28,869 nt of DNA from an uncultured Candidatus Saccharibacteria bacterium (GCA_964630035.1 CAZVSK010000002.1:14473-43341); one strand, 5' to 3'; counted from the first letter of the stretch, positions 2,651 through 28,869 are shown. The notes: generated by a model from the sequence alone, not told the origin. Numbers and translations: made by a program.

Positions 2651-2670
2651 ATTCCAATATTCTGGTGTTC

Positions 2671-3372
2671 TTAAGAATTTGAGAATAGATATGATGCAAT
2701 AGTCGCTGCAGTTTCGCCACGCAAAGTGAATTTTCCAAGACTTACAATAAAAAATTTATTTCTCTTTGCGTTTTTCAGCTCGTTTTCGCTCCATCCCCCT
2801 TCTGGTCCTATAAATATATTAATTGCATCATGTTCTTTTATATTTTTTAGCGAATAATTGAGATTGTTTCCACTACGATCACAAAAAAATGTAATACCAT
2901 CTCTTTTTTCTTTCAAAACATCATTAAAATTGGCGATATCTTTTAATTCCGGAATAATCCCCCGTTCCGATTGTTCCGCGGCCTCCTTTATAATTTTCAA
3001 TATGCGTTCTTTTTTTATATTCAGTTTTACCGTTCTTTCGGTGATAATGGGAGTTATTGTACTTACCCCGACCTCAACCGCCTTCTGCACAGCAAGTTCA
3101 AAGTTTTCTTTTTTGAGAATACTCAAATACAAATGAATGTTTCTTTTTGATTCGTTCTTATTTTTTTCCAATGAAATAATTTTTGTATTTATATCTTTTT
3201 CCATATGCGTTATTTCCGCCATATATTCGCTTTTGTTTTCATCGCACAACAAAATTTTTTCTCCTACTTTCAAATGAAGTACATTTTTTATCTGATGTAC
3301 TATTTCTTTTTTGTCTATTTTTATTCCTTTATCCACAATCACGAATTTTCCAAAAAATCTGTGTATTTTCAT
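2671..3372 (-). CDS. rsmE: 16S rRNA m3U1498 methyltransferase
   Basis: HQIKNVLHLKVGE, QKAVEVGV, EAAEQSER, IFIGPEGGWS, LGKFTLRGETA SPOUT motifs. Confidence 0.95.
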   Translation of the reverse strand: MKIHRFFGKFVIVDKGIKIDKKEIVHQIKNVLHLKVGEKILLCDENKSEYMAEITHMEKDINTKIISLEKNKNESKRNIHLYLSILKKENFELAVQKAVEVGVSTITPIITERTVKLNIKKERILKIIKEAAEQSERGIIPELKDIANFNDVLKEKRDGITFFCDRSGNNLNYSLKNIKEHDAINIFIGPEGGWSENELKNAKRNKFFIVSLGKFTLRGETAATIASYLFSNS

Positions 3373-27134: not shown

Positions 27135-27539
27135 ATGCCTAAGAAAAAGCGTGCTCGGAGAAGAAGAGAAACAATCGCCGAAATACAATCGTGCATACGT
27201 AAAAAATCTCTTGAGTGTTCAATGAATTCACTTAACATTGGGCTCGCGCGTGAAGACATTGTTCTTCTTGCGCTTCAAGAGATGAAAAGAGATAAACTCA
27301 TCCGCGATTACATTCCAAGTGCTCGCCTCGGAAAAGCCGACCTTGCCGGAATAGATTTCACAGTGATTGCGGTTAAAAAGAAATATGAAACAATATATAT
27401 ATCCGTCACAGGACCAAAATGGGTTTCTTATCATAAAGAAAAACATCCCAACATTCCCGTTCTTGCTGTGGAAAAAGATGACACTCTACAGATTATAAAA
27501 AAGAAGATCCTCGCGATCGTATACCATTCCGAAAAATAA
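27135..27539 (+). CDS. Hypothetical protein, possibly PD-(D/E)XK-like fold
   Basis: SD AAGGAGG; DLAGIDFTVI...YISVTG loosely resembles a degenerate nuclease core; terminator at 27538-27569. Confidence 0.55.
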   Translation: MPKKKRARRRRETIAEIQSCIRKKSLECSMNSLNIGLAREDIVLLALQEMKRDKLIRDYIPSARLGKADLAGIDFTVIAVKKKYETIYISVTGPKWVSYHKEKHPNIPVLAVEKDDTLQIIKKKILAIVYHSEK

Positions 27540-27579: not shown

Positions 27580-28287
27580 TCAAAAAAGAGAAAGAAACAT
27601 GGAAATCTCAACTGATTCCCCTATTCCGAGCCGGCGTCCATCTTTTGACAAAATCGGTTCAACACAAAAATATCGCTCTGGATCGTCGCTCCATAAAACT
27701 ACATGAGATTTTTTTGAAAAATTACCTTCTAATCTCATTGCAATTCTTTTTCCGTTTTCTTCAATCACAAGTGCAGAACTTCGTATCTCAAATGCCTTTG
27801 AGTGTTCCGAAAATCCGGAATAATTTCCCAAACCAGAAACAACGAGAATATCATCAGAGTATCCGGAAAAATATGGATGAAATCCCGGATTGATAAATGC
27901 GCGATCAAAAAGACCGTCGTTTGGACGCTCAATTTTGAGAGAAACGGAAAGCATCCCTTCACGGACAATTACATTCACTTCGTGCATTAAAGACCAAGGA
28001 TAATCCGGCGTACCAGCACAATCAAAAAGCATTTGTATTGAATTATATCCTTGTCCAATTATTTCTGTCGCTTCTATGTCGCGAAGGTACCCGTGTTTCT
28101 TTTCTCCAAATTCTGGCACAAGACCAAAATAAGGTGAACAAATTGGGCACCCGCCTCTTGCTTTTCCGTTTTTCTCGACAAAATACGGAAAAAGAATATC
28201 TCTTCCGTCTACATTAAAACTCAACACTGTCCCCCCAATGGTTGAAACAACCGCTTTGGTCTTACCACATTTCAAGGTGTAGTCCAT
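27580..28287 (-). CDS. Aldose 1-epimerase / galactose mutarotase-like protein
   Basis: RGGCPICSPYFG, KHGYLR, NPGFHPYF, FCVEP motifs; SD AAGGAGG. Confidence 0.8.
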   Translation of the reverse strand: MDYTLKCGKTKAVVSTIGGTVLSFNVDGRDILFPYFVEKNGKARGGCPICSPYFGLVPEFGEKKHGYLRDIEATEIIGQGYNSIQMLFDCAGTPDYPWSLMHEVNVIVREGMLSVSLKIERPNDGLFDRAFINPGFHPYFSGYSDDILVVSGLGNYSGFSEHSKAFEIRSSALVIEENGKRIAMRLEGNFSKKSHVVLWSDDPERYFCVEPILSKDGRRLGIGESVEISMFLSLF

Positions 28288-28395
28288 TCACCCCTCCTTT
28301 TTATTTGTTAATAAAATGATACTAAAAATACGATACAACAACAAAAAGAGTGCGTCAAACACACCAATATATAATCACCAACCACACATCTCTTC

Positions 28396-28435
28396 TTTAA
28401 CATTCCAACATTCTGCAGAATGTTGGAATGTTAAA
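28396..28435. repeat. Perfect 40-bp palindrome, copy 1 (overlaps the HTH stop codon)
   Basis: TTT-AACATTCCAACATTCTGCAGAATGTTGGAATGTT-AAA. Confidence 0.95.
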
Positions 28436-28697
28436 AACGCCTCATAAACTTTGAAAATAATTCACCGTACGGAGAGAGCGTGTGTATAACTTGCCTTCCC
28501 CTATATTGCTTGTTCAACAAACCAGCACGAACAAGCTGATGTGTATGTTGGGAAATTGTTTTAAAATTTCCATTAAGAGTATCCGCAATTTGTTCAACCG
28601 TAAGACCGCTTCTCTTTTCAATCAACAAAATAATTTCAATGCGCCAATGATTTGCCGAGCCCTTAAAATACCTCTCAAGTTGTTTTGACGTTTTCAT
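28431..28697 (-). CDS. ArsR/SmtB-like winged-helix DNA-binding protein
   Basis: FKGSANHWRIEIILLI, LTVEQIADTL..NFKTISQHTHQLVRAGLL (HTH), wing RGRQVIHTLSPYG; start ATG 28697, 6 nt after TATAAT. Confidence 0.85.
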   Translation of the reverse strand: MKTSKQLERYFKGSANHWRIEIILLIEKRSGLTVEQIADTLNGNFKTISQHTHQLVRAGLLNKQYRGRQVIHTLSPYGELFSKFMRRF

Positions 28698-28707
28698 ATC
28701 TTTATTA

Positions 28708-28747
28708 TACAACATTCCAACATTCTGCAGAATGTTGGAATGTTGTA
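28708..28747. repeat. Perfect 40-bp palindrome, copy 2 (overlaps the HTH promoter)
   Basis: TAC-AACATTCCAACATTCTGCAGAATGTTGGAATGTT-GTA; the 34-bp core is identical to copy 1. Confidence 0.95.
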
Positions 28748-28856: not shown

Positions 28857-28869
28857 TCCGGAGTAGCTC
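28857..28869 (+). tRNA. Probable 5' end of a tRNA gene (Asn-like), cut by the window edge
   Basis: TCCGGAG-TA-GCTC fits acceptor 5' strand, T8A9 and D-stem; TATACT box and a hairpin upstream. Only 13 nt are visible. Confidence 0.4.

Follow-up and report, generated by a model that had tools for sequence, protein, structure and literature searches.

A stretch of 28,869 nucleotides from an uncultured Candidatus Saccharibacteria bacterium (GCA_964630035.1 CAZVSK010000002.1:14473-43341; the whole stretch is called the window below) carries, close to one end, a small gene for a regulator with the ArsR/SmtB fold, and this gene is bracketed by two perfect palindromes. With moderate confidence, we read the arrangement as an autoregulated repressor gene that would have one operator at its promoter and a second, conserved auxiliary operator fused to its stop codon, along with a small and variable regulon. 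A winged-helix autorepressor with palindromic operators is a known kind of system. What appears to be new is the class-wide twin bracket, an operator made of the last codons and the stop, centres that are specific to each paralogue, and sites at convergent gene junctions; we found no published description of such a system in literature on the heptamers, on ArsR proteins of Patescibacteria and Parcubacteria, or on palindromes, regulons and leaderless promoters. To our knowledge, transcriptional regulation in the Patescibacteria, or candidate phyla radiation, is almost a blank, and these organisms are largely uncultured.

Both palindromes extend over 40 bp and have the same 34-bp core, AACATTCCAACATTCTGCAGAATGTTGGAATGTT, laid out as AACATTCC-AACATTC-TGCA-GAATGTT-GGAATGTT, with two AACATTC heptamers per arm at a spacing of 8 bp (Table 1). 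The core occurs only twice in the window, even when up to 3 mismatches are tolerated, and did not occur in any of 100 shuffled sequences; the number of perfect 40-bp palindromes expected by chance is about 2.6e-8. Measured from centre to centre the palindromes are 312 bp apart, which places the two putative cognate operators within a loopable distance. Copy 1 contains the regulator stop codon and the final two bases of the Phe88 codon, and copy 2 lies on the promoter. In all these respects the coordinates and sequence agreed with an earlier note on this DNA, which had described two perfect palindromes with an identical core, a tandem AACATTC in each arm and differing, self-complementary flanks, one copy holding the stop codon and the other covering the promoter. 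The same note had asked whether the second copy was an assembly duplication, and this was ruled out, since the pair turned up again in dozens of independent assemblies.

Table 1. Positions of the regulator gene, its palindromes and associated features in the window
Feature	Position	Strand	Details
ArsR/SmtB-fold winged-helix regulator gene, 88 aa	28431-28697	-	MKTSKQLERYFKG...KFMRRF; ATG 28697-28695; stop TAA 28433-28431
-10 box TATAAT	28704-28709	-	ends 6 nt ahead of ATG; shares 2 bp with the end of copy 2
5' palindrome (copy 2)	28708-28747	.	TAC...GTA flanks; core 28711-28744; putative promoter operator
Heptamers of the 5' palindrome	28711-28717, 28719-28725 (AACATTC); 28730-28736, 28738-28744 (GAATGTT)		centre TGCA between
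3' palindrome (copy 1)	28396-28435	.	TTT...AAA flanks; core 28399-28432; putative auxiliary operator or boundary site
Aldose-1-epimerase-like gene	27580-28287	-	directly downstream of the 3' palindrome; own Shine-Dalgarno sequence
Candidate degenerate third site	2651-2691	.	ATATTCCAATATTCT left arm, then TTCTTAAGAATTTGAGAATAG; 18 of 28 in a low-threshold scan

We surveyed 80 loci from species-representative genomes encoding a relative of the regulator, together with metagenome loci, 86 regulator genes from Parcubacteria/Paceibacteria assemblies altogether. Both sites were present at 70 of these genes (81%), the 5' site alone at 9, the 3' site alone at 6 and neither at 1, giving 76 of 86 genes with a 3' site. 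Among other genes that have a 5' site, just 11 of 111 (10%) have a 3' site as well. Two-sided bracketing is therefore specific to the regulator gene, and the idea that palindromes would also flank the homologues was borne out.

The position of the 3' site relative to the coding sequence was strikingly regular. In 58 of the 82 genes compared, the core of this site begins 7 nt ahead of the stop codon (-7); 5 genes have it at -16, and 5 more (the window and four others) at +1. When the core starts at -7, the codons for K-T-F-stop, AAA ACA TTC TAA CAT TC, are at the same time the left arm of the palindrome, and the codon for residue 87 is ACA (T), TCA (S) or ATA (I), matching the heptamers AACATTC, ATCATTC and AATATTC; where the 3' site is displaced, residue 87 is free to vary. 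Because residue 87 follows the heptamer only where the two overlap, it is the DNA site that constrains the protein. An operator fused to the stop codon of its own gene would thus be an unusual instance of dual coding, with the DNA site dictating residue 87. In five genes the reading frame runs through the arm (…TFQHS) and the stop is the TGA of a TTGA centre. Two paralogues with this centre (L009 1098-1373 and L070 3001-3276) encode 91 aa, and a linker C in place of T removes the TAA. The 3' site of close relatives is separated from that of the window by a mirrored pair of changes (AACATTC…GAATGTT versus AATATTC…GAATATT).

The gene following the 3' site is convergent in 15 cases and co-directional in 44-54. 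The 3' palindrome is perfect in 11 of the 15 convergent cases, a higher share than elsewhere, and in L201, the closest relative, which lacks the downstream gene seen in the window, the site is kept and faces a convergent gene. The persistence of a stop-codon site even with nothing regulable downstream points to a role in looping, spreading or marking a transcription boundary. The 3' palindrome could instead be an operator or promoter element of the next gene, with the regulator sitting within its own regulon, and the co-directional cases are consistent with this. So are the TspO, PIF1-like helicase and DUF559/MTES nuclease-like neighbours, which palindromes often separate from the regulator and from each other, and the loci (for example L046, L050 and L025) where a TATAAT and an ATG follow the 3' site at a promoter-like distance. 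We consider a next-gene operator unlikely, since the 15 convergent genes, including that of L201, have the more perfect palindromes, bracketing distinguishes 81% of regulator genes from 10% of other site-bearing genes, and the overlap with the last codons is fixed independently of the gene that follows. Moreover, the next gene in the window starts 108 nt away, has its own Shine-Dalgarno (SD) sequence and has a predicted promoter past the palindrome (TTGACG-17-TATCGT, 28358-28330), the -35 element of which lies about 38 nt beyond it. A conserved downstream target was rejected, as the neighbours are diverse and TspO, the PIF1-like helicase and DUF559 recur only weakly.

The case for an auxiliary operator of the regulator gene itself draws further on the match between sites and protein. 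In 56 of 64 loci, the 5' and 3' sites agree in their central tetranucleotide. This centre tracks residues 44, 50 and 54, which lie in or beside the recognition helix. A TGCA centre goes with N44/Q50/S-or-A54 in 46 of 55 genes, TATA with D44/Q50/R54 in 9 of 16, and TCAA/TTGA with N44/E50/R54 in 12 of 15. Three of the four two-copy cases (contig L009 and the assembly pairs L054/L058 and L029/L075) consist of one TGCA-type and one TTGA-type gene, and in these every gene is flanked by its own type of centre; in the fourth pair, L008/L014, both genes are of the TGCA type. Co-variation of the palindrome with the recognition helix, which had been put forward as a check, was thus found, and most likely the regulator protein binds the 34-40-bp palindrome, that is, four AACATTC heptamers around a 4-bp centre. 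The result would be a class-wide pair of protein and site with a readable specificity code (centre TGCA, TATA or TYRA against residues 44, 50 and 54), one that can be tested in vitro or in Escherichia coli without culture of the host and that may allow regulons to be reconstructed from metagenome-assembled genomes.

Alignment of homologues, which begin MKT(S/P)KQLERYFKG, set the start codon of the regulator. The protein scored 26.4 bits against the Pfam profile HTH_5/ArsR (PF01022; cut-off, 22) and 40.3 bits, under the cut-off of 55, against the NCBIfam ArsR/SmtB profile NF033788, and its profile matches in the PDB were HlyU, CadC-like and ArsR proteins (E of 4e-6 to 6e-4). The AlphaFold2 monomer model (mean predicted local distance difference test score, 91.9) has helices at residues 4-10, 17-28, 34-41, 45-57 and 76-87 and strands at 61-66 and 69-74. 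This helix and strand order, H-H-H-H-E-E-H, is that of the ArsR/SmtB winged-helix fold (alpha1-alpha2-alpha3-alphaR-beta1-beta2-alpha5), and profile and model together agree with the original call of an ArsR-type winged-helix gene. We classify the regulator as a distant member of the ArsR/SmtB family. From a large protein collection we retrieved 360 homologues, nearly all 88 aa long and 65-84% identical, with a nearly invariant helix-turn-helix (HTH; NFKTISQHTxxLVxAGLL). The lineages named are Parcubacteria/Paceibacteria, including Giovannoni-, Lipton-, Jorgensen-, Sung-, Kaiser- and Wolfebacteria. Exact look-ups of the 94-aa and 88-aa forms of the regulator and of the downstream 235-aa protein gave no record.

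With the ArsR/SmtB repressors SmtB, CzrA, CadC, HlyU and NolR the regulator shares the winged-helix fold, the order of helices and sequence similarity. These relatives are small dimeric proteins for which a palindromic operator over the own promoter and autoregulation are established; in the regulator both features are predicted. It contains no cysteine and so lacks the alpha3 Cys of the metal sensors, and by inspection its alpha5 (PYGELFSKFMRRF) has no His/Asp/Glu metal pattern; the invariant columns of the homologue alignment are mainly HTH and core residues. Judged by these residues, it is therefore not a canonical metal sensor, nor a canonical redox sensor. Its site also differs from the imperfect 12-2-12 operators of the family in being a perfect 15-4-15 palindrome of four heptamers, and the second putative operator, built into the regulator stop codon, sets it apart from ArsR/SmtB repressors.

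The best Foldseek matches of the model were SmtB, CzrA, HlyU, CadC, MarR proteins and AspA, the last (4rs8 and 5k5q) with a root-mean-square deviation of 0.7-0.9 Å over about 70 residues and a template modelling score of 0.76-0.82. AspA, encoded by the Sulfolobus plasmid pNOB8, is a small dimeric winged-HTH protein. Its target is a 23-bp palindrome upstream of the gene that encodes it, and the bound protein covers more than 200 bp by spreading, with cooperative action at multiple sites (PMC5120986). By analogy, the regulator might nucleate at the palindromes and spread over the unit of about 315 bp, serving silencing or DNA segregation and not operator repression. The very close match of the winged-HTH core and a palindrome adjoining the own gene are common to both proteins, and two nucleation sites about 315 bp apart would suit spreading over the gene. 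However, SmtB, CzrA and MarR proteins fit the fold about as well, the sequence resembles ArsR, HlyU and CadC with no similarity to AspA detected, the host is bacterial, the flanking sites are two and discrete, and neither parA nor parB recurs beside the regulator gene as a partner, all of which makes an AspA-like function highly improbable. An AspA-ParB-ParA segregation module was rejected, given diverse downstream genes and no recurring ParA or ParB.

The promoter, like the stop codon, is tightly associated with a palindrome. In the window, the 5' palindrome spans -50 to -11 from the A of the ATG, its centre coincides with the -35 position, and no SD sequence precedes the regulator. Similar geometry was seen in homologous genes: about 95% of them have the 5' site at 8-115 nt ahead of the start codon, 42 of 81 have their best -10-like hexamer (TATAAT or TGnTAnnnT) ending 6-9 nt ahead of that codon, and only 10 of 81 have an SD-like motif. 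The commonest arrangement, judged by eye at a few loci, has the right-arm TTGGAA 17 nt upstream of the -10 box. The regulator mRNA is probably leaderless or nearly so, because the -10 box is close to the ATG and an SD sequence is lacking. From the extent of the palindrome and this promoter geometry, the 5' site is probably a promoter-overlapping operator that lies outside the transcript, with a putative role in repression. Between the window and its closest relatives of the L201/L203 type, the regulator proteins of which are 82-84% identical to that of the window, the 5' core, the GTA flank and TATAATAAAGATATG are 100% identical (L201 and L203), while the surrounding DNA has diverged.

The palindromes might alternatively be RNA hairpins, either terminators or stabilisers of mRNA 3' ends, with a secondary link to the regulator. 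Either copy folds into a hairpin of 18-20 bp at about -24 to -28 kcal/mol on either strand (z of -7 to -9), and sites are common directly past stop codons. We regard RNA hairpins as very unlikely: no U-tract or T-run follows either copy on either strand, a terminator scan lists neither, the 5' copy is upstream of the probable transcription start, and mismatches on the sense strand show no preference for wobble pairs (G:U 74 versus A:C 69, p=0.74). Furthermore, a purely structural role would need neither a class-wide primary sequence nor co-variation of centre and helix, and Rfam gave only sub-threshold matches to miRNA-precursor hairpins on the palindromes, which we treated as noise. An intrinsic (Rho-independent) terminator was rejected on the same pattern, a strong hairpin (about -25 kcal/mol) with no T-run and no G:U bias. 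About 30 nt past the 3' palindrome, a terminator-like hairpin with a T-run (28349-28365, minus strand) overlaps the predicted promoter of the next gene; if it is used, the 3' end of the regulator mRNA would include the palindrome.

Taken as an autoregulated repressor, the system might work as follows. The regulator would bind the 5' site over the -35 element and spacer of a TATAAT promoter from which transcription would begin at the ATG or slightly ahead of it, and occupancy of this site would shut off its own transcription, that is, negative autoregulation. The 3' site in the last codons and stop would be a second, auxiliary operator for the regulator gene itself, raising local occupancy by the repressor through bridging, looping or spreading across the unit of about 315 bp; alternatively, it would halt transcription that crosses the gene boundary. 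The few further copies per genome at other gene boundaries (PIF1-like helicase, DUF559 nuclease-like, TspO) would make up a small regulon. Repressors that loop or bridge between auxiliary operators are well known: lac O1/O2/O3, gal OE/OI, lambda CI at OR-OL and CI of coliphage 186 at FL/FR. In lambda the repressor gene lies between operator sets, and in 186 the flanking sites are about 300 bp from the promoter. The regulator resembles these systems in having two putative sites for one protein a few hundred base pairs apart, one at the promoter and one downstream. It differs from them in that the distal site overlaps its own stop codon throughout the class and in that no oligomerisation domain is evident in 88 aa. 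Of three models in the earlier note, autoregulation from 5' and 3' operators is the best supported.

Several points weigh against this scheme. The support for binding of the palindrome by the protein, for repression and for the action of the 3' site is wholly comparative. Four heptamers at 8-bp spacing map poorly onto a single ArsR-type dimer, and the co-variation of helix and centre may stem from a few phylogenetic events. The distance between 5' and 3' sites is 299-483 bp in 78 genes (mode, 317-320 bp), and a Rayleigh test at periods of 10-11.5 bp gave R of 0.16-0.24 and p of 0.01-0.13, with the best period at 12.6 bp. Because the spacing varies and no clear helical period emerges, a rigid loop is not favoured; the sites may be bridged flexibly, or the protein may, in the manner of AspA, spread from two nucleation sites. 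Palindromes also occur at convergent junctions far from regulator genes, which suggests a function beyond promoter control. Finally, the arms are more symmetrical than a symmetric protein alone would explain: we counted 594 compensated cells versus 317±13 in shuffles, and complementarity at linker positions was 0.83-0.89 within a site versus 0.31-0.38 between the sites of one locus.

Other measures of arm symmetry gave a similar picture. Within-site arm pairing amounted to 5669 Watson-Crick cells, compared with 5153±21 in shuffles, and the flanking 1-3 bp of the palindromes co-vary too. At 3' sites, where the stop codon imposes the linker T of the left arm, the non-coding right arm has A, while 5' sites have a C/G pair. 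Self-complementarity is thus kept at the DNA level above the expectation from column composition. Three explanations fit, each of them acting on DNA and not on RNA. The palindrome may function as extruded or cruciform DNA, the protein may require exact two-fold symmetry over four heptamers, or quasi-palindrome template-switch correction, a known mutational process, may homogenise the arms. Of the proposal that the palindromes are cruciform or RNA hairpin boundaries, the RNA part is disfavoured by the lack of a G:U bias and of a U-tract, and self-complementarity is maintained at the level of the DNA.

Sites away from the regulator were collected in a metagenome scan by palindrome pattern alone, which returned at least 174 sites on at least 120 stretches. 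Among the matches listed, 55 of 174 sites adjoin a relative of the regulator, or 38 of the 114 sites that are not near contig ends, and about two-thirds of the palindromes are away from the regulator gene. This corrects the earlier statement that the unit has no regulated target. Since roughly one-third of sites are at the regulator, there are roughly two flanking and about four other sites per regulator gene. With this low copy number and the tight linkage to the gene, the palindrome is not the high-copy repeat unrelated to the gene that had also been considered. The extra palindromes are enriched within a few kilobases of the regulator gene. Neighbouring proteins are highly diverse (591 proteins in 436 clusters in the first set of loci); those that recur are the PIF1-like helicase, DUF559/MTES nuclease-like and TspO proteins, often with palindromes between them, and also GIY-YIG, Fic/RhuM, NYN and ABC proteins. 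The neighbourhoods L001-L200 are rich in accessory or defence-like genes, including those for PIF1-like helicases with HTH_40, for DUF559/MTES restriction-endonuclease-like, GIY-YIG, Fic/RhuM and NYN proteins, and for a Schlafen-like helicase that has an S24 peptidase domain. There are hints of a regulon with a DNA-repair or defence theme, or of a location in variable islands.

At the convergent gene ends in L091, L104, L199 and L118 the palindrome makes up essentially the whole intergenic spacer. Such junctions raise the possibility that protein and palindrome form a boundary system of the Paceibacteria, a roadblock or insulator that works in both directions and would stop transcription at the borders of genes; the regulator would be enclosed so that only its own leaderless promoter sets its dosage, an mTERF/Reb1-like function on an ArsR fold. 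The bacterial roadblocks known to us are incidental and not dedicated systems. In keeping with a boundary role, sites at convergent junctions are the most perfect (mean arm mismatches of 0.33 and 0.68 versus 1.1-1.4 elsewhere), many sites start at or within a few nucleotides of an upstream stop, several unrelated genes stop at the T+AA of a palindrome, and the symmetry is at the DNA level with no strand bias. On the other hand, the overlap of 5' sites with promoters is clear, both upstream stops and downstream starts lie at widely varying distances, at least with crude calls of open reading frames (ORFs), and the predicted termination role follows from the placement of sites. We therefore rate a dedicated boundary system as rather improbable. 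With the same crude ORF calls, non-regulator sites followed no tight distance rule relative to the stops or starts beside them. Stops formed by the palindrome T+AA were seen in the unrelated genes L041 4901-5464 and L047 4143-5036, and likewise at L031 136-553, where another small HTH protein (112 aa; HTH_11/HTH_24) lies between two palindromes.

The last explanation that we weighed, also a model of the earlier note, is a mobile, invertible or shuffling cassette in which the palindromes are sites for a recombinase acting in trans or for homologous recombination, of the type of attC, of miniature inverted-repeat transposable elements (MITEs), or of repetitive extragenic palindromes (REPs) and their REP-associated tyrosine transposases (RAYTs). 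The palindromes are direct and inverted repeats at once, neighbourhoods are non-syntenic (the 436 clusters from 591 proteins), the order of the palindrome-separated PIF1, DUF559, regulator and TspO genes is permuted between genomes, neighbours are often accessory or defence-like, and close relatives have indels and an IS481-family transposase gene beside the 3' site. Like attC sites and REPs with their bacterial interspersed mosaic elements, the palindromes are intergenic, occur near stops and at convergent junctions, and retain self-complementarity. Unlike these elements, they are few (2 in 28.9 kb, roughly 6 per regulator gene), have a sequence conserved across the class and are linked to a winged-helix protein with which they co-vary, and 200 loci revealed no recurring HUH or tyrosine recombinase. 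The sites are conserved at class level while the enclosed gene drifts down to 65-70% identity, which therefore indicates purifying selection and not recent spread. A scan of viral contigs with the palindrome pattern gave 0 matches, and no empty site was found in the genomes compared. A cassette is thus barely credible. REP/RAYT or MITE-like palindromes were likewise rejected on their low copy number, a core that is identical in many candidate phyla and the lack of a recurring transposase.

Turning to the surroundings of the regulator gene, the position adjoining the 3' site is, by comparison with close relatives, an indel hotspot. L201 (3460-3535) has no aldose-1-epimerase-like gene and is otherwise syntenic (528-aa gene, Nramp transporter), and in L204 an IS481-family transposase gene (1500-2390) occupies the place of the aldose-1-epimerase-like gene. 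On the other side, the window ends (28859-28869, plus strand) in ...TCCGGAGTAGCTC, a block conserved in sister contigs as a tRNA-like 5' half (…GCTCAGCGGTAGAGCAGGTGCCTGTAGA…, possibly with anticodon GUA; about 3025-3041 in L201). Beside this half lies a group I intron (RF00028) at 2665-2971 in L201 and 5544-5888 in L203, both on the minus strand, with 61.5 and 63.3 bits, over the gathering score. ARAGORN called no tRNA at the window end, the place of the probable tRNA gene of the earlier note, where the block is cut off, nor at the block in the sister contigs. Because a tRNA-like half adjoins a group I intron and no tRNA is called, the block probably belongs to a tRNA gene that is interrupted by the intron and runs divergently from the regulator gene.

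Elsewhere in the window, the degenerate site at 2651-2691 lies between genes for an RsmE-like methyltransferase and an HhH-GPD DNA glycosylase (start codon 2650). It might represent a third site, weak or decayed, of uncertain membership. It falls in the 20-bp spacer ahead of the glycosylase gene, the start codon of which is within the arm. A half-site, AACATCCCAACATTC at 27442-27456, was taken as chance, as it is inside an ORF and has no right arm. A third palindrome variant of the type AACATAC/GTATGTT (for example, CACATACTAACATTCTCAAGTATGTTAGTATGTT) flanks other genes at L013 1068 and 2493 and at L107 2247, and might serve another paralogue as its operator. At 1723-1796 on the minus strand of the window, ARAGORN reports a tRNA with a two-base anticodon (tc), to which it assigns no identity; this tRNA adjoins tRNA-Leu(caa) and tRNA-Ile(gat).

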